A stretch of 64,000 bases of DNA from Spirochaetia bacterium (GCA_034520965.1 JAXHMY010000005.1:1-64000); one strand, 5' to 3'; shown: positions 759 through 13,627, counted from the first letter of the stretch. The notes: generated by a model not told the origin, from the letters alone. Program-made: numbers and translations.

Positions 759-3700
759 TTGAATAAAAAAAAACCATCAAATGAGTCTATTACTCGTGAT
801 AAGACTTCACCGTCGGAATCCTTTTCATTTCCAATTGTAGGCGTTGGGGCGTCTGCCGGAGGATTAGCGGCCTTTGAGGCTTTCTTCTCCGGCATGCCCA
901 CCGAAACCGACCCGGGAATGGCCTTTGTGCTGGTGCAGCACCTCGCCCCGGACCACAAGAGCATGCTCACGGACCTCATCAAGCGGTACACGCGGATGCG
1001 GGTCTACGAGGTAGAAGACGGGATGACGGTACACCCGAACAGCGCCTACATTATTCCTCCCGGCCATGACATGTCGTTTATAGACGGCACCTTGAAGCTC
1101 CACGAGCCCGCAGCCCCCCGCGGCCATCGCCTTCCTATAGACTTTTTTTTCCGCTCCCTCGCGGAGGACCAGGGAGAGCGGGCCATAGCCGTGGTGCTCT
1201 CGGGGACCGGGAGCGACGGCGCCCTCGGCATACGGGCAATTAAGGGGGAAGGGGGCATGATCATGGTGCAGTCCCCCGAATCCACCGACTTTGACGGGAT
1301 GCCCCGCAGCGCGATCGCCACCGGCATGGTCGATTATGTGCTTCCCCCGGCGGAGATGGCCGACGCGCTTATCTCCTACACCTCCCGCGCCTTCGGCGAG
1401 ACCGCCGCCGAGGCGAAGGCGCCGGAAAAGGGGAAAGAGAAGAGCCTGAAAACAATCTTCAAGCTGTTGCGGAAGCACAGCGGCCATGATTTTTCCCACT
1501 ACAAGCCGACTACCGTCTTGCGACGCATCAAACGACGCATGGCACTTCTGCAGATCGATGGAATCGAGAAGTATGTGGAGTATGTGCAACAGACAAGCGA
1601 TGAGCTCGATGCACTGTTTCAGGACCTGCTTATAGGGGTGACGAACTTTTTCCGGGATGCCGAGGCGTTTGCGGCACTCGAGGAGTCGATAATCCCGCAG
1701 CTCTTTGCCGGAAAGCGTTCCGGAGATTCCCTGCGGGTGTGGTCGGCGGGCTGCTCCACCGGCGAGGAGGCCTACTCCATAGCCATCCTTCTCCACGAGT
1801 ACATGGAGACCCTGCAGGAGAACTACAACCTCCAGGTATTTGCCACCGACATAGACGACCGGTCTATCGCCGCCGCCCGCGGCGGCATCTATCCCGCCAG
1901 TATCGCCGCCGACGTGAGTCCCGAGCGCCTCTCCCGCTATTTTACCGAGGAGTCGGTTACATCGGAGGGCATACCGGAGAGCTACCGCATACACAAGAAG
2001 ATTCGGGATGTGATGATTTTCTCCAAGCAGGATCTCATCAAAGACCCGCCCTTCTCCAATCTGGATCTTATAAGCTGCCGCAACCTCATGATCTATCTCA
2101 ACGGAGAGGTACACAAGAAACTCATTCCCCTTTTCCACTATGCCCTGCGGCCGGGGGGCATGCTGTTTTTAGGTACTTCGGAGAGCATCGGCGAATGCAC
2201 CGATCTTTTCCACACTCTCGACCGCAAGGCCAAGCTCTATCAGCGCAAGGATACCGCCGCCGCGCATTACAAGTCCTCCGGGAGCTTTCTGCCCCCCATG
2301 TTTCCTCCGCAGAGGATGCTCCGCGGAGCAAGAGCAGCCCTCGAGGCTGCAGCAAAAAGACCGCCCTCGCGCGAGGTGGCCGAGAAGACACTCCTCGAGA
2401 AGCTTGCCCCCGCAAGCGCCCTGGTAAACGAGCATGGGGACATCTTCTACCTCCACGGCCGAACGGGGATGTTCCTAGAGCCGGCTACGGGGGAAGTAGG
2501 ACACTACAACATCCTCAAGATGGCCCGGGAAGGTTTGCGTCACGAACTGACCATGGCCCTGCGTAAGGTCGTGCAGGAGGGCGGGACCATCCGTCGCCCC
2601 GGCTTGCGCGTCAAGACCAACGATCACTTCAGCCCGGTAAATCTGAGCATTTGCCCGGCGGCGGATACCTCCGATGGAACGTCAAGCCCGCCCCTCTACC
2701 TGGTGATATTGGAAGAGGGGGAGCGCGATACGGCCAAAGGAAAAGAACCGCCCGACCTGAGCAATGAGGACGACGACGGAGGCATAGCAGGACATCAAGA
2801 AGGAACTGCGGCTCAAAGAGGAGTACCTGCGGACGGCAAACGAGGAACTCGAGACCGCCAACGAGGAGCTCAAATCCTACAACGAAGAGATGCAGTCGAT
2901 GAACGAGGAGCTCCAGTCAACCAACGAGGAGCTGGAAACCTCTAAGGAGGAGCTGCAGTCGGTCAACGAGGAACTCGCCACGGTCAACACCGAACTGCAG
3001 AGCAAGGTAGCGGACCTCTCGCGTGCCAACGACGACATGAACAACCTGCTCGCGGGCACCGGTATTGCCACCATCTTTGTCGACCACCAGCTTCGTATCC
3101 TCCGCTTCACCCCCGCCGCGAGCGAGGTAATAAACCTGATAGGCAGTGATGTCGGACGGCCCGTTGGGCATATCGTCTCCAACCTCGAGAATTACGACCG
3201 CATGATTGCCGATATCCAGGAGGTGCTCGAGAGCCTTATTCCCAAGGAGGTGGAGGTGCGCAACAACGGGGGCGACTGGTTTACCATGCGCATTCTGCCC
3301 TACCGCACCATGGACAACGTAATTGAGGGGGCGGTAATCAACTTCGTAAATATCACATCCCGCAAGCAGATGGAAGATGAGCTAAAAAAGCAGCTTTCAG
3401 AGAAGGAGCTTCTTCTGCGGGAGGTCCACCACCGGATAAAAAACAATATCGCCTCTGTTGGATCGCTCCTCTCGATGCAGATCCAATCCGTGAGCAACCA
3501 GGAGGCTCTCTCCGTCTTGCAGGATGCCGTCGGTCGTGTAAACAGCATGAAGGTGCTCTACGACAAACTCCTTATACAGAACGACTACGAAGATAGCTCG
3601 GCTAAGAGCTATACGGAGGGACTTATCGAATCGTTGAGGAACCTCTATTCCGACGAAACACATCTTACAATTGAGACACGGATCGACGAGTTCAACCTCC

Positions 3701-4005
3701 CACAAAAAACGCTGTTTTCCCTCGGAATCATTATCAACGAACTTTTTACCAATACAATGAAATATGCCTTTGCCGATAAAACCGGCGGGTCGATAGTCGT
3801 CTCACTGACGAAGACGGAAAATCAGGTAACCCTCACCATACAAGATAACGGTCGGGGGCTTCCCGAAGATTTTGCCATCGAAGAGTCAACGGGCTTTGGA
3901 CTCACCCTTGTCAGAATGCTCATCGAACACCTGGGTGGAAGCTATGCGATTGAGAATCGGGAGGAGTCGGAAGGGGCGAGAAGTATTTTAGAATTCGATG
4001 TGTAA
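759..4005 (+). CDS. CheB methylesterase-CheR methyltransferase-coiled coil-PAS-HisKA_2 histidine kinase fusion (one frameshift near 2775-2790)
   Basis: CheB triad motifs GASAGG, VQHL, GSDGA; CheR WSAGCSTGEEAYS and SCRNLMIY; NEELQS heptads continue in the other frame from about 2791; EVHHRIKNN, NELFTN, QDNGRG, GFGL. Confidence 0.9.
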
Positions 4006-4020
4006 TATTCCTCCAACCTG

Positions 4021-4064
4021 TGTACGCTACCGAACAGACGGCAATGGCTGAGAAAGTGTAAGTT
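4021..4064 (+). promoter_or_regulatory. Crp-type box TGTACGCTACCGAACA-GAC with -10 TAAGTT (4059-4064)
   Basis: One of seven related sites, each with a TAnnnT hexamer 21-22 nt downstream. Confidence 0.65.
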
Positions 4065-4094
4065 TGAAATATCTTATGCAGAGGAGAAGATAAT

Positions 4095-4289
4095 ATGCCG
4101 TTGTTTGAATTGTTAATAGTGTTGGTTGTCGTGGGGGTAGTTCTTTGGCTAATCAATAACTACATACCGATGCAGGCGAATATCAAGAAGATATTGAATG
4201 TGGTTGTTATAATCGTGGTGATTTTGGTTATCCTGAACGCCTTTGGAATCCTGGATACAGGTCCGCGATTTAGGATAGGCAGATGGTAG
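4095..4289 (+). CDS. Small two-helix membrane protein (Thivi_2564-like family)
   Basis: GAGGAG RBS; LIVLVVVGVVLWLINNYIPM..IKKILNVVV pattern. Confidence 0.8.
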   Translation: MPLFELLIVLVVVGVVLWLINNYIPMQANIKKILNVVVIIVVILVILNAFGILDTGPRFRIGRW

Positions 4290-4354: not shown

Positions 4355-5080
4355 TCAGATATCAGGTAATAGTCGCTGAAATTCTGCTCTGACAACCTCG
4401 TAGCATTCGCACACCCGGGCCTCAAGGCCCGGTCGATTCAGCACGGTGATACGGCCGCGATGGTAGTTGATGAGGCCCGATTTCTGCAGTTTTCCGGCTG
4501 CCTCGGTTACCCCTTCCCGCCGGACACCCAGCATATTGGCGATTAGCTCCTGGGTCATACTCAACTCGTTGGTCGGTAGACGGTCGAGGCTGAGCAGCAG
4601 CCATCGGCAAAGCTGCTGATCCACCGTGTGGTGCCGGTTGCAGACTGCAGTTTGCGCCATCTGGGTGAGAAGCGCAAGGGTGTAACGCAGTAGAAGGTGC
4701 TGCACTCCCCCGGAACGGTTGAACTCCTGGGTCAGTATCGTTCCTTTTAAACGGTATGCCTGGCCGGCGCTTTGCACTACTGCACGATTCGGCATGGTCT
4801 GCCCGCCCAGAAACAGCGCGATTCCGACCACCCCCTCTTTGCCGACCACCGCAATCTCTGCGGACGATCCATCCTCCATAACATACAAAAGCGATACAAT
4901 AGCGTCGGTGGGAAAGTAGACCCACTTTAGTTCCCCTCCCGACTCGTACAACACGTCGCCAAGCGGCATGGGTACCAGCTCCAAATGAGGGGCAATCTGC
5001 TGAAAGTCGGAATCGTTCAAAGCGCCAAGCAGACGATTTTCACGGGGGTTCGGTTTTTTTACTTGTTCTGGGTCATACAT
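4355..5080 (-). CDS. Crp/Fnr family transcriptional regulator
   Basis: cNMP-like beta-barrel (VVGKEGVVG) and C-terminal HTH_Crp_2 (MTQELIANMLGVRREGVTEAAGKLQKSGLI); AGGAGAG RBS. Confidence 0.93.
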   Translation of the reverse strand: MYDPEQVKKPNPRENRLLGALNDSDFQQIAPHLELVPMPLGDVLYESGGELKWVYFPTDAIVSLLYVMEDGSSAEIAVVGKEGVVGIALFLGGQTMPNRAVVQSAGQAYRLKGTILTQEFNRSGGVQHLLLRYTLALLTQMAQTAVCNRHHTVDQQLCRWLLLSLDRLPTNELSMTQELIANMLGVRREGVTEAAGKLQKSGLINYHRGRITVLNRPGLEARVCECYEVVRAEFQRLLPDI

Positions 5081-5168
5081 GATGCTCTCCTATAATAAAT
5101 TATAATAATTGGTAATTACCAAGTCAATAAATACCTGCGAGTATAGGTCAGCTCATATCAGGACGCTA

Positions 5169-5211
5169 TGTGCGCCGGCGCACAGACGACTGGCCCTGCC
5201 TATGGTATCTT
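5169..5211 (+). promoter_or_regulatory. Crp-type box TGTGCGCCGGCGCACA-GAC with extended -10 TGgTATCTT
   Basis: Perfect 16-bp palindrome 5169-5184; -10 at 5206-5211; divergent from the crp gene. Confidence 0.75.
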
Positions 5212-5240
5212 TACATTATCTTGATTCAAGGAGGAGTAAT

Positions 5241-5303
5241 ATGGGTATTATAGGTGTATTAGTTGTAGTTATTCTGGTAGTTGTACTTGTCTCGATTCTT
5301 TAA
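5241..5303 (+). CDS. 20-aa hydrophobic micro-protein, copy 1 (MGIIGVLVVVILVVVLVSIL)
   Basis: AAGGAGGAG RBS; length and frame conserved in three copies; many differences synonymous. Confidence 0.7.
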   Translation: MGIIGVLVVVILVVVLVSIL

Positions 5304-5456
5304 TAGCAGCATGTGGGCCCAGGTTTGAGGACAATTTATGTGTCTTCGACTATTACGATGAATACACTGGAAGCTGACGCACAACACAAATATGCTATCG
5401 CGTATATGGATTTAACTTATTTCTTGATAGATATTAATCCCAAATACAGGACGCTA

Positions 5457-5499
5457 TGTGCACTGGCGCATAGACGACATGCCCTGCATATGGTACCTT
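5457..5499 (+). promoter_or_regulatory. Crp-type box TGTGCACTGGCGCATA-GAC with extended -10 TGgTACCTT
   Basis: Same spacing (21 nt) as the other copies. Confidence 0.7.
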
Positions 5500-5528
5500 T
5501 AAATTATCTTGATTCAAGGAGTAGTGAT

Positions 5529-5591
5529 ATGGATATTATAGGTGTATTAGTTGTAGTCATTCTGGTAGTTGTACTTGTTTCAATTATTTGA
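5529..5591 (+). CDS. 20-aa hydrophobic micro-protein, copy 2 (MDIIGVLVVVILVVVLVSII)
   Basis: AAGGAG RBS; TGA stop at the position of the TAA in the other copies. Confidence 0.65.
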   Translation: MDIIGVLVVVILVVVLVSII

Positions 5592-5754
5592 TAACAGCAT
5601 TCGGTAGATTACATAATTTCTTGATCTGATGGCCGACAGTGAAAAACATGGAACCCGGGGGGGGCATGATAAGCCCCCATACGTCCGGGTCCTTATACAC
5701 TTCAAATTTACTCGCCATATTAAACTCCTTTGTTGGCTGCTGTGCATTGACTGA

Positions 5755-6258
5755 TCACTTAATAATCTTTGCAACTCGCAGCACGAAGCCGACGACTGCC
5801 GCAAGGTATCCTGCCCCCATTGAATAGCCTCCTGCCTGAATTGTAACTTGTATACCGAAGGTTGTTGTTATGAAGTGGAGAAACTTCGAATTGCTCAGCG
5901 AGAGGAATTTGAGGGCCACTACTATGGACAACAATAAGCTGACCGCCAGCAAAGCGCAGCCAACGAAATAGCCGAAATCTCTCTTGCTGACATACGTGGC
6001 CACAATGCTCAGTAGGGCACACAGAAACACGCCAAGCAGTGCATATCCGTACAGGTCTGCGATAGGTCCCAGAAGCGTGGCCTTCCCCAACTGCTGCGTA
6101 TTTCCAAGGATGCCTTGCGCAACCTGATATCCACCCAAATCGTATGTGATCGGAAGAAAAAGTCCTAGAAAAACAAGGAGACCAGCAGTTTTCAGAATGG
6201 TTGTAGTAGCCGACAGCTTCATTGTGTCTCTCATAGACTTCACTCGGTACTTAATCAT
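5755..6258 (-). CDS. Hypothetical multi-pass membrane protein
   Basis: AGGAG RBS; about 4 hydrophobic segments; co-oriented downstream of the DUF3494 gene. Confidence 0.65.
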   Translation of the reverse strand: MIKYRVKSMRDTMKLSATTTILKTAGLLVFLGLFLPITYDLGGYQVAQGILGNTQQLGKATLLGPIADLYGYALLGVFLCALLSIVATYVSKRDFGYFVGCALLAVSLLLSIVVALKFLSLSNSKFLHFITTTFGIQVTIQAGGYSMGAGYLAAVVGFVLRVAKIIK

Positions 6259-6389
6259 CTTCTATTCTCCTAATTATTTGTATTGACTATTATTTTCAAT
6301 CGGGACTATCAAATCGCCGCTGTGGGAACCTGGGGAGGGCGTTGTCCGCCCTCCATCAAATCCGGGTTTCCTCGATTCTTTGACTTTTG

Positions 6390-7184
6390 TTACGGCTGGG
6401 TAACCGCGTTCGCGTCCAACGTAACCGCTTTCTGTGAGTGCAGCCGTCCGTTCACCGAGGCCCCAGTTTTGAGCGCAATTTCGGTTGCGGTCATGAGCGT
6501 TCCCGCGAACACCGAAGTAGTACTGAGTGTCGCGTTCGATCCGACCTGCCACACGATGTTCTCAGCCAGCGCGCCGCCGGCAAGAGTTACCTGGACGCCG
6601 TTTGCCACGGTGAGGTCGTTTGCTATCTGGAATACCCAGGTTGCGGTCTCCGAACCCCAGAGCGTGACGTCGCTGTTGATAGTGACACCGGTTCCCCACT
6701 TGTAGAGCCCCGGCTCGATGGTCAAACCGCTGATATCCCCGGAGCCGAGCTCGGTGGCATCCGGATCCGGCAGGTCGGCAGCGGTCGTGTACGCCGTCTC
6801 CATGTCGCCGACCGCCGCCGTCAGTTCGGTGGGAGTAGGCTCTTCGTAGTCAAAAGCGTAGAGTCTGCCGTTTACATTATCCGATGTCGAGAACTCGTTG
6901 GTTGAGTCCATTGTCAGCGAAAAGCCTGTTAAGGACGTATCAACCGTTCCGATGTTGCCCGTGATCGCCGTTGTTATTGCGGTGTTCGTGATCCCGGCCT
7001 TCGTTAAGGATCACGTAGTTGCCGGCGGACCCAAGGCTTACCGCAGCGGGCCCTCCGTTGGGACTGGGCACCGAGCAGCGCCCGTCCCCGCGCCAGTAGA
7101 ATTGCACCTCGCAAGAGCCAGGATACCAACGATGGCAACCATCAACACAAGTAGTCGCCTCTTTTTAAAATTAGTACTCATCAT
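6390..7184 (-). CDS. DUF3494 ice-binding-like (lipo)protein (two compensating frameshifts near 7005 and 7070)
   Basis: Signal MMSTNFKKRRLLVLMVAIVGILALARC; stitched frames give PAAVSLGSAGNYVIL-TKAGIT..ITGNIG, then AVGDMETAY, PGLYKW, WVFQI, NIVWQV, GRL..Q.AVTLD. Confidence 0.88.
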
Positions 7185-7297
7185 AAATCTCCTTTCCTCT
7201 CCCAGGATTTTGCGTGAAACATTTCTGTATGCTCCACATTATCAAAACGTTGAAACCTTATAGGCTTCTTTGGTTATTTTTAACCTTCTTATTATTG

Positions 7298-7340
7298 AAA
7301 GTATGCTTTCTTTTGCGGATAGACTGTTCGTTGCCGCACA
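7298..7340 (-). promoter_or_regulatory. Crp-type box TGTGCGGCAACGAACA-GTC with -10 TACTTT
   Basis: Box 7325-7340; -10 at 7303-7298, 21-nt spacing; upstream of the 7184 start. Confidence 0.7.
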
Positions 7341-7380
7341 TAGACCAGCTATTTTTATGAAATTTCTGTCAGTCAATAGA

Positions 7381-7401
7381 GGGCGGCACTGAGAGCCGCC
7401 C
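7381..7401 (-). terminator. GC-rich hairpin after the Ig-DUF3494 gene
   Basis: GGGCGGC-7 nt-GCCGCCC. Confidence 0.55.
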
Positions 7402-7423
7402 GTAGCATCTGTAGAACTCCGTT

Positions 7424-8517
7424 CTATTGCGCGGGCTCGGTCACGGTGGCCTTATCAAGGGCAACTTGGGTCTGTGTCAGAGCGCGTCCGTTCATCGATG
7501 CCCCTGTATCAAAGGTGATATCCTTCATGCTCAGAATTACTCCTTCAAAGTGGGAGCCCGTCTCAAGTAGCACCCCGCCGCCGCCGGCGACCTGCCAGAA
7601 GATGTTCTTCGCCTGCGCGCCACCTGATAGGATCACACTCTTATCGGCCGCTACCGTCAGATCACCGCTCATCTGGAATATCCAGACGTCGTTCGCGCCA
7701 CCGGAGATAGTGACATCAGAGGATGCTGTTACCGAAGAGCCCCACTTGTGAAGACCTGGTTCCAGTGTCAGGGTACCAATCTCGCCGCCACCCTCGTCCG
7801 AAAAATTAGGGTTCTGTCTTCCTTTCGCATCGGTATACGCAGTTTCCATGTCAGAAATTGCGGTAGTCATCATAGTCGGTGTAGGAGGTGTCATGTCGGC
7901 CGCGTAGAGAACCCCTGTCACCTGGGTGATGTCGAGTAACCTGTTGCCTTTGTTTGAGAAAAGCCGGTCAGGTAGGTTTCAGCGGCCGGGCTTACACCGA
8001 TGTCGCCGGTGATTACCGAATCAGGGACTGTTGAGATTCCCGTCTTCGACAGAATCGCAAAGTTTCCCGCGGTGCCTAGCAGTACCGGGTCCGGGCCGAG
8101 GCCGGCTGCTGCGGTTGTAAAGGTCCAGACATAGTCCTCATCCATGTTGTTGCCGTTAATGTCGGTGACGGAGGTGTTTAATTTTGCCGTGTACTCGATC
8201 TCATTGACCAGAAGCTCTGTTGGTGCAAACTTGGCAGTCTCATTGGGCAGGTCATAGGTTACGTTTCCATTGACAGCCGTAGTACCATTCAGGACAGTAA
8301 AATTCGCCCCTACTATGGTTGCATGATCCATCGCCTCGCTGAATTTTGCGGAAATTGTACCAGTGGTGCTTACATCTGTGGCATCAGAATCCGGCATGGT
8401 AGAAATTACCGTCGGTGCCGTGAAGTCCCCTGCGGAACCGGAGGAATTACATCCCATAAAAGCAAATATAGTAAATAGTGCGATCAGGGATATTAGAATT
8501 GTTTTGGTCTTCATCAT
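7424..8517 (-). CDS. Lipoprotein with Ig-like (Big_5-type) domain and DUF3494 ice-binding-like domain (frameshift near 7920)
   Basis: Lipobox FMGC; APTVIST.P...FSEAMD...YVWTFTT Ig domain; LGTAGNFAILSKTGIS, AISDMETAY, WIFQ, NIFWQVAG, NGRALTQT. Confidence 0.92.
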
Positions 8518-8646
8518 ATACTCCTTTGTATAATTAGAATTGGATGATGAAGAATAGAGTGCGCTTGGTCCCGTATTTTTGGGTAAGTCTTTGCACCGTA
8601 AGCAGAACGCCTCCTTTCGTTCATAGATTCTCCACGATCTAATAAG

Positions 8647-8690
8647 AAGATACGCAGAAAGGATAATCGTCGTCTGTACGGTAGCGCGCT
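8647..8690 (-). promoter_or_regulatory. Crp-type box AGCGCGCTACCGTACA-GAC with -10 TATCTT
   Basis: Box 8675-8690; -10 at 8652-8647, 22-nt spacing. Confidence 0.6.
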
Positions 8691-8728
8691 TAGCGGTACG
8701 GTTTGATCTACATATATACTTGGGGCTA

Positions 8729-8771
8729 TGTGCGCCGGCGCACAGACGATAGACCCTGGGATAGGTATCTT
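8729..8771 (+). promoter_or_regulatory. Crp-type box TGTGCGCCGGCGCACA-GAC with -10 TATCTT
   Basis: Palindrome identical to 5169-5184; -10 at 8766-8771. Confidence 0.75.
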
Positions 8772-8800
8772 CTAATTATCTTGATTCAAGGAGGAGTGAT

Positions 8801-8863
8801 ATGGGTTTAGCTAGTGTATTAGTTGTAGTTATTCTAGTAGTTGTACTTGTCTCAATTCTTTAA
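8801..8863 (+). CDS. 20-aa hydrophobic micro-protein, copy 3 (MGLASVLVVVILVVVLVSIL)
   Basis: AAGGAGGAG RBS; same cassette as 5160-5303; below the ORF-track cutoff. Confidence 0.7.
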   Translation: MGLASVLVVVILVVVLVSIL

Positions 8864-9018
8864 TAACAGAGGGAACCAAGAGCAGAGTTTCACGGCTTTA
8901 TTAAGGAAAAATTACCTTGCCGGCACTGTTTTCCGTCGGAACTTGGAGGCGGGCAGTGCGAGGCAATAAATAAAGTGTAATCTGGAGAGGTAAATTTTTT
9001 GAATGGATGTGACTTTTA

Positions 9019-9061
9019 TGTGTGATAGCGAACAGACGGATAAAATTGGGTAGAGTATAAT
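9019..9061 (+). promoter_or_regulatory. Crp-type box TGTGTGATAGCGAACA-GAC with consensus -10 TATAAT
   Basis: Box 9019-9034; TATAAT at 9056-9061. Confidence 0.75.
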
Positions 9062-9067
9062 GGCATT

Positions 9068-9247
9068 ATGTCGGATACAAATGAGTGCAGGAAGAAAGAA
9101 AATGACACTGGAAAGAAATGGTATGCCGGGATGGATGCGTTAGAAGCTCTCTGGCGGACAAAGATAGCGGAGAGCCGGGTAGAATACCTTGAAACTTTTT
9201 TACAGGTGACCAAAAAACGATCAAAACCCGATTTTCCCCGTAATTAG
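9068..9247 (+). CDS. Candidate leaderless 59-aa hypothetical protein
   Basis: ATG 6 nt after TATAAT, no SD; open to TAG 9245-9247 (MSDTNECRKKEND...DFPRN). Confidence 0.35.
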   Translation: MSDTNECRKKENDTGKKWYAGMDALEALWRTKIAESRVEYLETFLQVTKKRSKPDFPRN

Positions 9248-9311
9248 TGCGTGTCATACATGCCGGAAATTAATCGTACCAGAGTCTTTTTATAGTTGAA
9301 GTGAAGAAAAC

Positions 9312-11573
9312 ATGAGAAAACACTCTATTGTGATGATACTCATCACACTTATTATCCCGATAGTTCTTTGTGGACCTCTCTGGGCGCAGGATCATTCTGG
9401 GACACCCCGCCCCTCGGTCGCCCTGGTTCTTGAAGGAGGTGGTGCGCTCGGCTTTGCACACATAGGAGTCATAAAGGTAATCGAAGAGCTGGGCATCCCC
9501 ATCGACCTGGTAGTAGGGACGAGTATGGGAGCCACTGTAGGCGGTTTTTATGCTTTAGGCTACGACTCCGCGCGGCTGGAAGAAATTTCTCTGAGTATCG
9601 ACTGGGACGATATTTTCTCGGAAAAGGTCACTTTTATCGATGAACGGTACCTGGATAGAATCGACCAATCCAGGTATTTTGCACGCATAGAATTTGATAG
9701 CCACGGATTCAAGGTTCCCAGCAGTCTGCTTACCGGCCGGAAGATGCTCTACTATCTTGACCGATTGACCCTGGGAGTCTCCTCTCCCACCGATTTCGAT
9801 TCGTTACCGCGACGATTCCGCGCTGTTGCGACGGATCTTGCTACGGGTGAACGGGTCGTTATCGATCATGGATCGCTATCCGACGCTATGCGGGCCAGCA
9901 TGGGCATCCCCGGTATTCTTGCTCCTTACCGTATAGGCGACAAATATCTCGTTGATGGAGCTATCGTCGATAATCTTCCTGTCAGTGTCGCAAGAGAACT
10001 CGGTGCCGACCTCATCATTGCGGTCAACCTTGTTAGAAAACTTCCTTTTGAACCGGAATCCCTGAATCGAAATCCTCTGGAAACAATGTCCCGTTCCATA
10101 GATATCATGATTCGTTCCAATGTACAGCGTCAATTGCTTGATGCCGATCTTGCTGTCAAGGTTGATGTAAGAGCTTATGATATCGGTGATTATCAAAAAG
10201 CATTGGAAATTATCGCGTTAGGCAAAAAGGCGGCGGAGGAATTGCACGAAGAATTTGATAACCTCAAAACAAAACTCGGCGAACCTCCGGACTACACCGC
10301 TGATATACACCGGAAAGACCAGACTCCGATCCTGAAGGTGAATATAAAAGGGGCCGACAAAAAAGATCGTGATAGAGCCCATGCATTATTTGCACCCTTT
10401 GTGGGAAAAATACTTGTTGCCTCGGATCTGAAAGAAGCAGTGGAAGTTCTTGAAGCCAGGGGAAGCTATGAATACATACGTCTACGACGGACAACAGAAG
10501 AATCTGTTCCCACGTTAACGGTAACACTGCAGAAACGGAAAGCCCCTGGTCATTCAATTCGTCTGGGAATTGATTATAATTCCACCTACTCAAGCTCAAA
10601 CCTTAGTAACGCAGGTATTTCATTTAGTCTGGTATTCCGCAGTCTAATAACAGAAAATTCTAGATTAACCATCAACGCAAAAATAATGGATTCTACGGCC
10701 TTTGAGCTTATTATGTTGCAGCCCTTTGGAGTAAACCTTTTTGCCGAAGGGTTTTTCATGGCGCGTCAAGAAACTGATGCTTTTTATAATAATTCCTCCA
10801 CTATTTCTCTCCAGCAGACAGAGATCATTGAGATGGGTATCAACCTGGGAGCCAACCCGGTCCACTGGGCGGAGCTCGCAGCGGGCGTCCGTTACCAGTT
10901 GGCACAGGCTTCTATGGAACCTATTGTACCCGCAGGAGATGCTAGGGAATCAGTCTTTATCGGGAATATTTTCTTTTCGTCCTATCAACTGGATTCGCCT
11001 ATATTTCCCACCGCAGGGTTTTCAATCTTGTCCAGTTATGATCAATCATTGACTCAGTCCGGTTCCTCCTCTATTTTTCGCATCCTGAATCTCGAAGGCC
11101 TTTTCATTCCGGACTTCAACATTCCACTCTCCTTCACGCTGTGGACTAAGGCGGGAACCGATTTCAGCGAATATGCCGATGCAGCAGGAGCGGCGCCGCT
11201 CTACCACAAGCCAAATCTCTATGATCGACAATTTTTTCCTGGGCCCCTTGGAGTAAGGGAGCGTATCGGAAGTCACATCGCGAGCGTTGGGGCTGAGATA
11301 AAGTATCAGCTGAAAGGAGCTTCATGGGCGACCGGGTTCCCTTTCTTTTTATTGTTGCAGGCATCGCAGGGAACCGTACTGCAGGATGTAAAAGACATCG
11401 AGCGGCCATTCGACTTCACTCATTGGACTGGGACTGTTGGGTTAGGCGGTCGCCTCAACGATGGGTTTGGGGCATTATTCCGTGTCGGAGGTACCTACGG
11501 GTTTGATGAAGAGCTCCACCTTTTTATCGCCTTTGATATGGGCTCTCTGGGTAATCGAAAAAACTCTCGCTAG
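9312..11573 (+). CDS. Secreted patatin-like phospholipase with probable C-terminal beta-barrel (PlpD-like)
   Basis: Signal peptide; LEGGGALGFAHIG, GTSMG, DGAI motifs; C-terminal alternating beta-strand pattern. Confidence 0.88.
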   Translation: MRKHSIVMILITLIIPIVLCGPLWAQDHSGTPRPSVALVLEGGGALGFAHIGVIKVIEELGIPIDLVVGTSMGATVGGFYALGYDSARLEEISLSIDWDDIFSEKVTFIDERYLDRIDQSRYFARIEFDSHGFKVPSSLLTGRKMLYYLDRLTLGVSSPTDFDSLPRRFRAVATDLATGERVVIDHGSLSDAMRASMGIPGILAPYRIGDKYLVDGAIVDNLPVSVARELGADLIIAVNLVRKLPFEPESLNRNPLETMSRSIDIMIRSNVQRQLLDADLAVKVDVRAYDIGDYQKALEIIALGKKAAEELHEEFDNLKTKLGEPPDYTADIHRKDQTPILKVNIKGADKKDRDRAHALFAPFVGKILVASDLKEAVEVLEARGSYEYIRLRRTTEESVPTLTVTLQKRKAPGHSIRLGIDYNSTYSSSNLSNAGISFSLVFRSLITENSRLTINAKIMDSTAFELIMLQPFGVNLFAEGFFMARQETDAFYNNSSTISLQQTEIIEMGINLGANPVHWAELAAGVRYQLAQASMEPIVPAGDARESVFIGNIFFSSYQLDSPIFPTAGFSILSSYDQSLTQSGSSSIFRILNLEGLFIPDFNIPLSFTLWTKAGTDFSEYADAAGAAPLYHKPNLYDRQFFPGPLGVRERIGSHIASVGAEIKYQLKGASWATGFPFFLLLQASQGTVLQDVKDIERPFDFTHWTGTVGLGGRLNDGFGALFRVGGTYGFDEELHLFIAFDMGSLGNRKNSR

Positions 11574-11597: not shown

Positions 11598-12719
11598 TCA
11601 GCTTCTGTTTATAACAGTTTCTCTTTTTAACAGATAGGTGCTGATCAAGAAAAACAGCCCTGCATACATTGAATTTATAATTATTGATATCATAAACGCA
11701 CTTGGACTGCCACTTCCATAGAGAATTGAACGAATTACAAATGAGGCATTGGCAATAGGTATCGTCAAAAAAATAGGATCAATCAAGTAGGGATCGCCGG
11801 CGATCAGGCCGCTGGATAAGGCTGAGGCCAGGACGATAACCGGTAGCGTGAGTATGGTCCCTTCCTTGATGGATTTTGCGTACAAGCCTATCGACATGCC
11901 GACGGCTGAAAACAGCAGCACACAAAACAGCATAATTATCCCCATCAAAGCAATGGATGCCGGGCTGGAAATTTCCAGCAGCGACACTCCTCCCGTAATC
12001 TTTGGGAAAAACCATGAACTTAGCATCAGCCCGCCCAGCAGAGCGGCAACTGCGGTAATACCTACTACGGAGGCGGCAAGTGTTTTGCCCATGATGATGG
12101 CCCTTCGAGAAATATTGGAGCTTAAAAGTGTCTCTATTGTTGAACGCTCCTTCTCTCCGGCACTCATATCAATCACGCTTGACATAGTCGTGGAAGCGGA
12201 AAAGACCATCAGGAAGACTGGAAGAATGATCGACAGAGTGAGGAGGGAGCTGTTTTTCTGTTCGCTTCTCACCGGGATGCTTTGAACCGACAGTGCATCT
12301 TCGCGGGGTTCGGAAGCGGAAAAATACGATCGGAGCAAGGAATTAATACGTACATACGTGAACTCGGAGATTCTTCTGGCGGGATCATAATATAGTGTAA
12401 ACCCTTTGTATTCGTCTCCTTCTTGTATAAACTCTATCCCCAGTTCGGCGTTGCCGTCCCTGATTGTCTCTGTGGGTGCGTTCGATTGAATAAACTGAAT
12501 GCCGTTGATGGATTCGCGAATGAGATTCTGGAGTTGAACTGCTTCTTTCTCAATAATTATTCTCACCTTTGAGCCCACATCTCCTTTTGATGGTTCCAGG
12601 GTCATGAAGAACAGCAGCAAGGGAACGATAACAGCCGGCATAAGCAGCGCTGCGATAATCATTCTCCTGTCACGAACCTGATCAAGCAGCTCTTTTTTTA
12701 GAATAATAAGTAGTTTCAT
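11598..12719 (-). CDS. ABC-2 permease, NatB-like
   Basis: KKELLDQVRDRR start; AGEKERSTIETLLS motif; multiple TM helices. Confidence 0.85.
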   Translation of the reverse strand: MKLLIILKKELLDQVRDRRMIIAALLMPAVIVPLLLFFMTLEPSKGDVGSKVRIIIEKEAVQLQNLIRESINGIQFIQSNAPTETIRDGNAELGIEFIQEGDEYKGFTLYYDPARRISEFTYVRINSLLRSYFSASEPREDALSVQSIPVRSEQKNSSLLTLSIILPVFLMVFSASTTMSSVIDMSAGEKERSTIETLLSSNISRRAIIMGKTLAASVVGITAVAALLGGLMLSSWFFPKITGGVSLLEISSPASIALMGIIMLFCVLLFSAVGMSIGLYAKSIKEGTILTLPVIVLASALSSGLIAGDPYLIDPIFLTIPIANASFVIRSILYGSGSPSAFMISIIINSMYAGLFFLISTYLLKRETVINRS

Positions 12720-13430
12720 TTAGTCTCTCAAATAGGATGTTATATCTTTTCCTCTGCCGGACTGAAATAGTTCGACAGGGGAATCACAAACGATCTGCCC
12801 GGCATGGAGAATAATTACTCTGTCTGCACAGCTTAAGATTTCGTCAAGAGAGTGACTTGAGAACAAGACCGTTTTTCCGCTCTTTTTAAGCCGCGAAATA
12901 ATTGCCTTCACAGAATCTTTTGCAATAATGTCCAGCCCTGAAGAGGGCTCATCGAGGATGATAAACTCCGGATCCGTAATCAAAGTTCTTGCTATTGCAG
13001 TGCGCTGTTTCATCCCCCGTGAGAAGGTTGATACCCTGTCATCTATATAATGGGAAAGTGAAAGTTCTTCGATAAGCAGCTTGAGGTCTGGTTCATATTT
13101 TGCCTTGGGTATACCGTTTAGACGGGCATGATAGATGATATTCTCTCTGGCACTCAAACGATCGTACAGAGAACTTTCTCCGGAAAACAAAGTACCGGTT
13201 CTGTTTTTCATGTACCCCGGATCTTCATGGAAGCTCACCGTATCAAGCGAGATTGAACCTGCATCGGGTCGCAGAATCTGCGAGAGAATCCTGACTAAAG
13301 TACTTTTTCCGGCGCCGTTTTCTCCTACAAGTGCTACAACTTCGCCCTTTTTTACGGAAAATGATATATCCGCCAGAACCATCTCTTTTTTCGCTGGAAA
13401 GCTTTTACAGACCCCGCACAACTCGAGCAT
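12720..13430 (-). CDS. ABC transporter ATP-binding protein, NatA-like
   Basis: GENGAGKST, FSRGMKQR, ILDEP, SSH. Confidence 0.92.
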   Translation of the reverse strand: MLELCGVCKSFPAKKEMVLADISFSVKKGEVVALVGENGAGKSTLVRILSQILRPDAGSISLDTVSFHEDPGYMKNRTGTLFSGESSLYDRLSARENIIYHARLNGIPKAKYEPDLKLLIEELSLSHYIDDRVSTFSRGMKQRTAIARTLITDPEFIILDEPSSGLDIIAKDSVKAIISRLKKSGKTVLFSSHSLDEILSCADRVIILHAGQIVCDSPVELFQSGRGKDITSYLRD

Positions 13431-13627
13431 ACAAAATATCCTTACCACGCTTCTTACATAACTGTAATAAAAGTATCAAATCATCCAGTCTCAGTCTGTG
13501 CGATATCATAGCATAGCCGATTCTTTACAGACAACGATAATCCTTTGAAAATCCTATATTATAGTGAAAATATGAGCTTTGTGAAGCAAGCAATTCCCAC
13601 TGAAGCGGGAGACCCAAAAAAAACAGG

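Follow-up and report, generated by a model that had tools for sequence, protein, structure and literature searches.

A candidate 20-codon micro-protein of spirochaetes and its possible partnership with an ABC-2 exporter

What purpose might be served by a strongly hydrophobic frame of only 20 codons that a spirochaete carries three times over, each time behind a putative promoter? The question is raised by a stretch of 64,000 nucleotides from a Spirochaetia bacterium (GCA_034520965.1; JAXHMY010000005.1:1-64000), the whole of which is referred to here as the window. The source is a metagenome-assembled genome (MAG) of a spirochaete, consisting of 9 contigs (3.35 Mb; 85.9% complete). The repeated unit contains a Crp-type palindrome (the box), a -10 element, a strong Shine-Dalgarno sequence and a 20-codon open reading frame (ORF; hereafter the micro-ORF); copy A stands next to a gene for a Crp/Fnr-family regulator, and an ABC-2 exporter is encoded nearby. 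The reading that we favour, with a probability of roughly 0.45 on the strength of comparative sequence evidence, is that the micro-protein is a translated single-helix peptide of the inner membrane that acts together with the ABC-2 exporter and is most likely bound to it as a small partner.

A repeat search revealed one family with three direct copies of 154 nt, located at 5159-5312 (copy A, the reference), 5447-5600 (copy B; 89% identity) and 8719-8872 (copy C; 82% identity). The conserved unit within them, of about 145 nt, occupies 5160-5310, 5448-5598 and 8725-8869. In a search of the nine-contig MAG, the unit was found three times, at the window copies only. The 18-mer TTATCTTGATTCAAGGAG has three exact occurrences in the window; when up to 3 mismatches are allowed, shuffled sequences contain 0.13 occurrences on average, and none of 100 shuffles attained 3. 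The 16-nt palindrome TGTGCGCCGGCGCACA is matched exactly at 5169 and 8729; at 5457 there are 3 mismatches, and the box of copy B is thus degenerate. With that qualification, repeat search and alignment recovered the triplicated unit put forward in a preliminary description of the locus, and the ORF translations are identical to the three peptides listed there (Table 1). That description also had the similarity end a few bases past the stop codon; in a three-way alignment it begins about 5 nt 5' of the box and stops 6-9 nt past the stop codon. The micro-peptides are 20 amino acids long, with Val, Ile or Leu at 16 of the 20 codons in copy A and at 15 in copy C. The longer in-frame ORFs at 5109-5303 and 5313-5591 were discarded: their upstream parts are unconserved, and in copy C a stop lies 12 codons upstream. 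Duplication during assembly, already thought unlikely, is not the source of the copies because A, B and C differ from each other. Short contigs of a public DNA run span the region, one of them (5254-6014) joining the ORF of copy A, copy B and the next gene, and there are no differences in the micro-ORFs between these contigs and the window; this run is possibly the sample behind the window assembly, in which case it lends no independent support. Micro-ORF B overlaps at its 3' end with a 44-codon ORF on the opposite strand (5584-5718, minus), which has a good AAGGAG Shine-Dalgarno sequence and traverses a G8/C8 run.

Homologous ORFs occur well outside this genome. The core LVVVILVxVxV is shared by about 50 ORFs, 18-22 codons in length, that were collected from seven metagenome contigs and from genomes of other Spirochaetia families and other classes of the phylum. 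Those listed are all intact, and a Shine-Dalgarno match precedes every one except L060; no internal stop or frameshift was seen among the homologues examined. Within the genus, a DNA search of 61 genomes gave intact orthologues in two of the nine other genomes (G004 and G007), in which the changes are either silent or swaps among Val, Ile, Leu and Ala. In G004 the one copy found, MSIIGVLVVVILVVVLVSII, adjoins a regulator gene that is truncated; its box spacer is 2 nt short and the permease is broken. In G007 the one copy found is MGLISVLVAVILVIVIVSII, and a further 20-codon ORF lies 5' of it on the predicted transcript that they share. In G008 the regulator is present with a DEAD-box helicase gene beside it, and there is no micro-ORF there. 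The Crp-type module of G004 (L020/L082) is decaying: the patatin gene is gone as well and the permease carries a TAG, yet the micro-ORF is still intact; contig C22 of that genome has a second module of the operon type. The additional ORF of G007, MKRVIVIFALMMILPAMAFA (L017/L019), lies between the box and the micro-ORF, has its own Shine-Dalgarno sequence and resembles a bare signal peptide.

Beyond the genus, a codon-degenerate pattern matched 6 more ORFs in 401 Spirochaetia genomes (at most 3 mismatches) and 3 more in 401 genomes of the phylum (at most 1 mismatch), and a reversed control pattern had no match in the same sets. The strict codon pattern found no locus in metagenome contigs, in which a looser pattern gave 7 loci (6 distinct). 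All matches of the pattern turned out to be ORFs 18-22 codons long, with a single plausible start codon preceded at 5-9 nt by a Shine-Dalgarno sequence, two features that lie outside the pattern itself. A profile built from 20 peptides (A2) matched 33 of the 401 class-sample genomes at E<=1, including all 7 genomes of one family, and 19 of the 21 profile-found loci inspected contain such an ORF; the exceptions are L072, a transmembrane segment of a kinase, and L076, a weak match. The residues invariant in A2 (L7, V8, V10, I11, L12, V13 and V15) are largely the positions fixed by the search pattern, and the members found by profile or synteny keep them with few exceptions. Three residues from the peptide end, most lineages have Lys or Arg, and this genus has Ser. 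More than one micro-ORF is present in this window, in G448, in the genomes of family f54, in G004 and in G149. Neither pattern nor profile matched the host-associated families f34 (0/50), f26 (0/37 in the class sample and 0/8 in the phylum sample), f69 (0/75) and f74 (0/38), and tblastn against plasmids was without match. A fused, 'Rosetta-stone' form of the peptide was considered and dropped, as the long-frame profile matches inspected were chance transmembrane segments, such as that of the sensor kinase in L072. The genome samples are partial and include many incomplete MAGs; within them, the family is present in many free-living spirochaetes.

An unbiased test of coding was provided by loci fetched with the permease protein alone, 17 of 30 being scanned (those of genomes not already examined, together with the own and G007 loci). 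A composition filter was applied that considers only length, Shine-Dalgarno sequence and a Val/Ile/Leu content of 60% or more. Leaving aside loci of the own type, it detected a micro-ORF, or two of them, in 12 of 15; over the whole 3.35-Mb genome the same filter gave 11 matches, 3 of them being the window copies. The 3 loci without a micro-ORF are a fragment (L083), a contig edge (L105) and one unexplained case (L099). In this way an 18-amino-acid variant, MLYLLLCVIAVIIIIRII, was recognised in six genomes of one family, where both pattern and profile had missed it. Within the diverged, synteny-found set of this type, silent divergence is high and replacement divergence low (pS=0.62, pN=0.094), and identity is 0.79 in the ORF versus 0.30-0.32 in the flanks. 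Over 16 codons, copy A and its orthologue in G007, which was found by DNA search, differ by 5 silent changes and 5 conservative replacements. Entropy at codon positions 1, 2 and 3 is 0.70, 0.21 and 1.57 bits, respectively (20 sequences), with a dip at the Shine-Dalgarno sequence and none downstream; this periodicity is partly circular because the set was largely found with the codon pattern, which fixes positions 1 and 2 and leaves position 3 free. A search of Rfam returned one chance-level match only, outside the repeats. The predicted 5' untranslated region (UTR) is about 24 nt long with an open Shine-Dalgarno sequence, and it folds no better than shuffled sequences (z +2.14, +0.97 and +0.74). 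These comparisons indicate that the micro-ORF is a real, selected coding gene and likely to be translated. The proposal of a protein-coding, multi-copy gene under purifying selection has therefore held, with intact 18-22-codon homologues behind Shine-Dalgarno sequences, saturated silent sites and unconserved flanks; the extent of the family beyond the locus and the link to an ABC-2 exporter, to which we now turn, had been missed.

According to Pfam searches on the flanks, a gene for an ABC ATPase and/or an ABC-2 permease adjoins the micro-ORF in 9 of 10 loci (the exception is L036). The same holds for 17 of 18 profile-found loci, the remaining one (L057) having a cNMP-binding gene instead, and taken together more than 35 loci show the linkage. 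Most often the ATPase gene comes first, followed by the permease gene and the micro-ORF. In 28 loci a long ORF lies upstream on the same strand, its stop codon separated from the start of the micro-ORF by 2-225 nt (median 71); wherever Pfam was run on this long ORF, it is the ABC-2 permease. A permease homologue is present in 47 class-sample genomes, and these include 25 of the 28 that have a convincing micro-ORF. Other arrangements include micro-ORF, ATPase, permease (L033, L034 and L038-L040; 18-181 nt between ORF and ATPase) and a micro-ORF divergent from the exporter (L029 and L030). The arrangement in this genus is micro-ORF, 59-amino-acid ORF and patatin gene, convergent with permease and ATPase, and in the window 2.7 kb separate copy C from the exporter downstream of it. 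The transporter itself is strongly diverged: permeases of different families are 23-31% identical and ATPases 32-42%, and the own ATPase has 76% identity to that of G355, 40-42% to those of G288 and G295, and 32-34% to those of the metagenome contigs. No solved relative of the permease was found by sequence. As the Pfam match of the permease is complete to the end of the profile, the idea that the micro-ORF is the split-off last helix of this protein was dropped. In one genus of family f54 (L077, L102, L106 and L107), two tandem micro-ORFs follow the permease; in L077 the pair is closely followed by ilvC, for which a separate TTGACA/TAAGGT promoter is present in the intervening gap.

Small single-helix partners are familiar from several membrane machines, among them CydX, CcmD of the CcmABCD heme exporter and the LptC helix in LptB2FGC. 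KdpF (29 amino acids; KdpABC) and AcrZ (49 amino acids; AcrAB-TolC) are small transporter partners which, according to a 2025 review of small membrane proteins, were recognised by conserved operon membership (PMC12648545). Because it was this kind of evidence that revealed KdpF and AcrZ, a partner of the exporter is the best single reading of the micro-protein. Like partners of the KdpF/AcrZ type, the micro-protein would be one hydrophobic helix, is encoded in or beside the operon of the complex and belongs to a class usually missed by annotation. It differs from them in being shorter (18-22 amino acids), far more uniform and more conserved than its presumed partner, to which binding is predicted only, as well as in often being multi-copy with its own promoter. 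We found no small partner described for NatB-like ABC-2 exporters, and the term 'ABC transporter' occurs 0 times in the same review (PMC12648545).

In the mechanism that we propose, the repeat would be a small gene unit made up of promoter, Shine-Dalgarno sequence and 20 codons. To judge from its composition, the Val/Ile/Leu peptide would fall among the single-transmembrane-helix proteins of fewer than 50 amino acids, with an uninterrupted hydrophobic core forming one helix that would just span the bilayer of the inner membrane. The helix would work with the ABC-2 exporter, most likely as a bound small partner; translation, membrane insertion and physical or functional coupling to the exporter are all predicted here from sequence. 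In this lineage, the micro-gene has left the exporter operon, been triplicated and joined a local Crp-type regulon whose other predicted products include a patatin-like lipase, a Thivi_2564 protein and two proteins of the ice-binding-like type, a wiring that might provide a strong, signal-dependent burst of peptide.

Several observations weigh against a bound partner. There is no ABC gene within the stretch examined in L043, L044 and L045, which belong to other classes (1.5 kb examined), or in L057 and L036, and the micro-genes of the window stand outside the exporter operon. Conservation of the peptide far exceeds that of the transporter, which would be unusual for a mere docking helix; it may reflect a separate constraint, such as lipid contact or self-assembly, or else mean that the peptide is cargo. 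A gene present in several copies that have strong start signals of their own would fit an abundant product better than a one-to-one subunit. In addition, the pattern and profile searches are biased towards the protein, so that pN is underestimated in the sets which they provided.

The local regulon is suggested by the arrangement of boxes around the three copies (Table 1). The pattern TGTNCGNNNNCGNACAGA is exact genome-wide only at 4021, 5169 and 8729; sites with one mismatch are located at 7323/7325 and 9019, and elsewhere their count is near that of the control. A -10-like hexamer follows the box at a distance of 21 nt, namely TATCTT in copies A and C, TACCTT in copy B and TATAAT at 9056, and the box at 4021 is followed one base further by TAAGTT (4059). 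Measured as the step from the last base of the box to the first of the hexamer, the spacing is 22 nt in copies A, B and C and at 9019, and 23 nt at 4021. A consensus scan found no sigma-70 promoter with a -35 element at the window copies. A box near -41.5 and the lack of a -35 element together give the geometry of an activator-dependent class II promoter, from which we infer that the window copies are activated by the neighbouring Crp-family regulator through a site centred near -41.5. The gene for this regulator has a promoter of the form TTGACT-17-TATAAT. Its product shares 87% identity with the regulator of L071, which stands beside a micro-ORF in another family, and 71-84% with those in four other families, and it again adjoins the micro-ORF in L071 and G288. 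The protein contains several conserved cysteines and is far more conserved than the products of the ABC genes. Boxes of the same type lie 5' of micro-ORFs in L030, L033, L034, L038 and L071, and right halves in L029 and L031; many operon-type loci are without such a box, and upstream of the window ATPase gene there is a half-site only. The 11-nt palindrome CTTGA-T-TCAAG is present at 5220-5230, 5508-5518 and 8780-8790, where it abuts the Shine-Dalgarno sequence just 3' of the start of transcription, which is predicted near 5218, 5506 and 8778, and likewise in G007, with CTTTGATCAAAG at the same place in L033. It is too short to form an RNA hairpin and may represent a second protein-binding site.

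Table 1. Micro-gene units and associated features of the window (positions counted from its first nucleotide)
Feature	Position	Strand	Basis and remarks
Crp-type palindrome TGTGCG-N4-CGCACA, copy A	5169-5184	+	Exact 16-mer; between the divergent Crp-family gene and micro-ORF A
Predicted -10 TATCTT, copy A	5206-5211	+	Read from sequence, inferred; TG before it; without -35
Shine-Dalgarno AAGGAGG, copy A	5228-5234	+	6 nt 5' of ATG
Micro-ORF A, 20 codons + stop	5241-5303	+	ORF translation: MGIIGVLVVVILVVVLVSIL
Degenerate box, copy B	5457-5472	+	3 mismatches, including CACA to CATA
Micro-ORF B	5529-5591	+	MDIIGVLVVVILVVVLVSII; Shine-Dalgarno slightly weaker, AAGGAGT
Box, copy C	8729-8744	+	Exact; predicted -10 TATCTT at 8766-8771
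Micro-ORF C	8801-8863	+	ORF translation: MGLASVLVVVILVVVLVSIL
Crp/Fnr-family regulator (cNMP-binding + HTH_Crp_2)	4355-5080	-	Pfam; divergent from copy A; presumed reader of the box
Box + 64-amino-acid Thivi_2564-family two-helix membrane protein (4095-4289)	4021-4289	+	Box 4021-4036 exact; NF041949 67.9 bits (cut-off 33)
Two ice-binding-like (DUF3494) genes, between copies B and C	6390-7184, 7424-8517	-	Pfam; boxes 7325-7340 and, weaker, near 8674-8689
Box + 59-amino-acid ORF (9068-9247) + patatin-like phospholipase (9312-11573)	9019-11573	+	Box 9019-9034; perfect TATAAT
ABC-2 exporter	11598-13448	-	ATPase 12720-13448 (Pfam ABC_tran); permease 11598-12719 (Pfam ABC2_membrane_3)

So defined, the regulon would comprise the Thivi_2564 protein, the three micro-ORFs, the two ice-binding-like genes and the 59-amino-acid ORF with the patatin gene. 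A Thivi_2564-like gene, recognised by eye, adjoins the micro-ORF in L029, L030 and L044, and the second helix of the window protein (VVVIIVVILVIL) resembles the micro-peptide in appearance. The order micro-ORF, 58-amino-acid ORF and patatin gene recurs in G007 as in the window. The 58-59-amino-acid ORF (window and L017/G007) is conserved and hydrophilic and resembles the sll1863 stress-protein family only weakly and below threshold (E 0.061), and the patatin-like lipase (753 amino acids) has a signal peptide. Both DUF3494 genes are split into two frames in the window, the assembly of which carries small indel errors. The contigs of the DNA run, which cover the DUF3494 region except for 6694-7206, have an extra G after 7923, exactly at one frame break (7918-7925), as well as a TC insertion after 6226 in a gene for a 167-amino-acid membrane protein; because the extra G falls at a frame break, the breaks are probably assembly indels, and the genes not pseudogenes. 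A gene for a CheB-CheR fusion and one for a PAS/HisKA_2 kinase lie upstream of the regulator (759-4005), and CheB or CheB-CheR genes are also found near the micro-ORF in L030 and L036; such genes may be part of a wider conserved neighbourhood.

Among the other explanations, the one that best withstands the evidence regards the peptide as the cargo of the exporter. A leaderless, very hydrophobic peptide made in a burst would be extracted from the inner membrane by the ABC-2 pump and passed outward, where it might serve as a signal, as a surfactant or other membrane-active agent, or in protection of the producer. We regard this reading as the main rival, though less probable than a bound partner. 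Phenol-soluble modulins are exported in such a manner by PmtABCD. A published case is the export of the SHP/Rgg pheromones by PptAB (PMC5167397). As in these two systems, we find ORFs of about 20 amino acids without a signal peptide, present in multiple and often tandem copies, each with its own Shine-Dalgarno sequence and in many cases a promoter of its own; the window has a divergent transcription-factor gene next to the peptide gene, with the presumed site of the factor in the peptide promoter. The G007 transcript, moreover, would carry the ORF resembling a bare signal peptide in addition to the micro-ORF, and the core of the peptide is more conserved than the pump. The ATPases match those for export of phenol-soluble modulins and for lantibiotic protection, weakly, below cut-off and among many others, and the permease resembles, again below cut-off, the permease half of NF041647, an ABC permease fused to a CPBP intramembrane protease. 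Both known systems depend on an ABC exporter, whereas export of the micro-protein is only proposed, and unlike their peptides it has no amphipathic face and no processing motif, its charge being one Lys or Arg at most; phenol-soluble modulins are amphipathic helices, and SHP peptides combine a charged N-terminus with a pheromone processed from the C-terminus. It is also found phylum-wide rather than bound to a genus, under a Crp/Fnr-family regulator and in a diderm host. Secreted signals and toxins usually diversify, whereas the seven-residue core, a feature that is largely fixed by the pattern in A2, is nearly unchanged across families throughout the phylum. Without a charged face, an Asp/Gly tail or a processing site, the peptide would be insoluble outside the membrane, and its gene is usually last in the operon, not first.

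The preliminary description had pointed to Ibs-type toxins. On such a reading the peptide would be a stand-alone type I membrane toxin which depolarises the cell and is curbed by an antisense RNA, and its linkage to the transporter would be incidental. Toxin genes of the Ibs and Ldr types are multi-copy, as is the micro-gene. IbsC, with 19 amino acids, is almost wholly a transmembrane helix, as stated in the review (PMC12648545), and the micro-protein agrees with these smallest type I toxins of E. coli in size, near-total hydrophobicity and repeated copies; furthermore, TATAAT can be read on the reverse strand at codons 3-4 of copies A and B. This antisense TATAAT is missing, however, from copy C, from G007 and from the other homologues, and a consensus scan, which a weak promoter could escape, detected nothing like a sigma-70 promoter on the opposite strand, either within the copies or beside them. 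In contrast to Ibs/Sib, no antisense RNA gene was found, the leader is short and open, with no stable fold, the promoter is predicted to depend on an activator, and there is no match to the sequence family. Conservation is confined to the ORF and its Shine-Dalgarno sequence, and a toxin would leave the ABC-2 operon link in more than 35 loci unexplained. We therefore hold the toxin reading to be improbable, and the lead has not been borne out.

A cis-acting leader ORF appears very improbable; in this reading, transcription or translation of the adjacent genes would be adjusted by ribosomes that pause on Val/Ile/Leu codons or on the nascent chain, with no role left for the peptide. The leader peptides IlvL and IvbL are likewise very short ORFs rich in codons for branched-chain residues, which account for most of the codons of copies A and C; the ORF precedes the ATPase closely in five loci (L033, L034 and L038-L040), and two copies stand just before ilvC in one genus. 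In that genus, however, ilvC has a promoter of its own in the gap (L077), for which reason an ilvC leader was dropped. Elsewhere the ORF follows the permease (28 loci) or diverges from the exporter (L029 and L030), and window copies A and B have no following plus-strand gene. Unlike IlvL and IvbL, the micro-ORF has no attenuator or downstream biosynthetic operon and is usually at the end of an operon; behind the window copies there is no hairpin resembling a terminator, and the downstream sequence is unconserved. Moreover, selection acts on residues, the order of which is conserved and not just the codon class, while codons vary freely. That the unit is an untranslated DNA site or small RNA with an incidental open frame, for which the palindrome in the 5' UTR could be cited, is scarcely credible in view of the mostly silent changes in the synteny-found set (pS 0.62, pN 0.094), the retention of start, stop, length and Shine-Dalgarno sequence between flanks of random identity, and the lack of an Rfam match in the repeats or of a stable fold.

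No family model of Pfam or NCBIfam matches the peptide, and exact look-up of 10 of the peptides among about 15 billion public proteins returned none. A search of the literature outside subscription journals and supplements found neither the core peptide strings nor such a peptide nor a small partner of an ABC-2 exporter. The micro-protein is a new family among the small helical companions of membrane machines. Proteins of 18-22 amino acids are invisible to gene callers, and the lack of pattern or profile matches in the large host-associated families of the sample may be why this one went unnoticed. In composition it recalls lung surfactant protein C of unrelated organisms, whose poly-valine membrane helix is likewise almost wholly Val, Ile and Leu and which is cut from a precursor and lipid-modified; no homology between them is claimed.

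Slightly more tentatively than the bound-partner reading, we propose that this family, of 18-22 amino acids that are almost purely Val, Ile and Leu, might be an obligate third component, either partner or dedicated cargo, of a NatB-like ABC-2 exporter throughout the free-living spirochaetes and probably beyond, and that it has here been captured, triplicated and wired into a Crp-type envelope regulon with the Thivi_2564 protein, the ice-binding-like proteins and an outer-membrane patatin lipase. The carriers G060, G169, G262, G203 and G024 have complete or near-complete genomes (1-4 contigs) and may be in culture, so that bench work looks feasible. The locus is a clean case in which comparative genomics alone identifies a 20-codon ORF as a conserved gene and names its likely partner. 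Exporters of the NatB-like ABC-2 type, the substrates of which are mostly unknown, would gain a third component open to test, and the peptide would offer a minimal natural poly-Val/Ile helix for the study of membrane insertion, assembly and extraction. If the proposal is true, these peptides would be among the smallest conserved proteins known.

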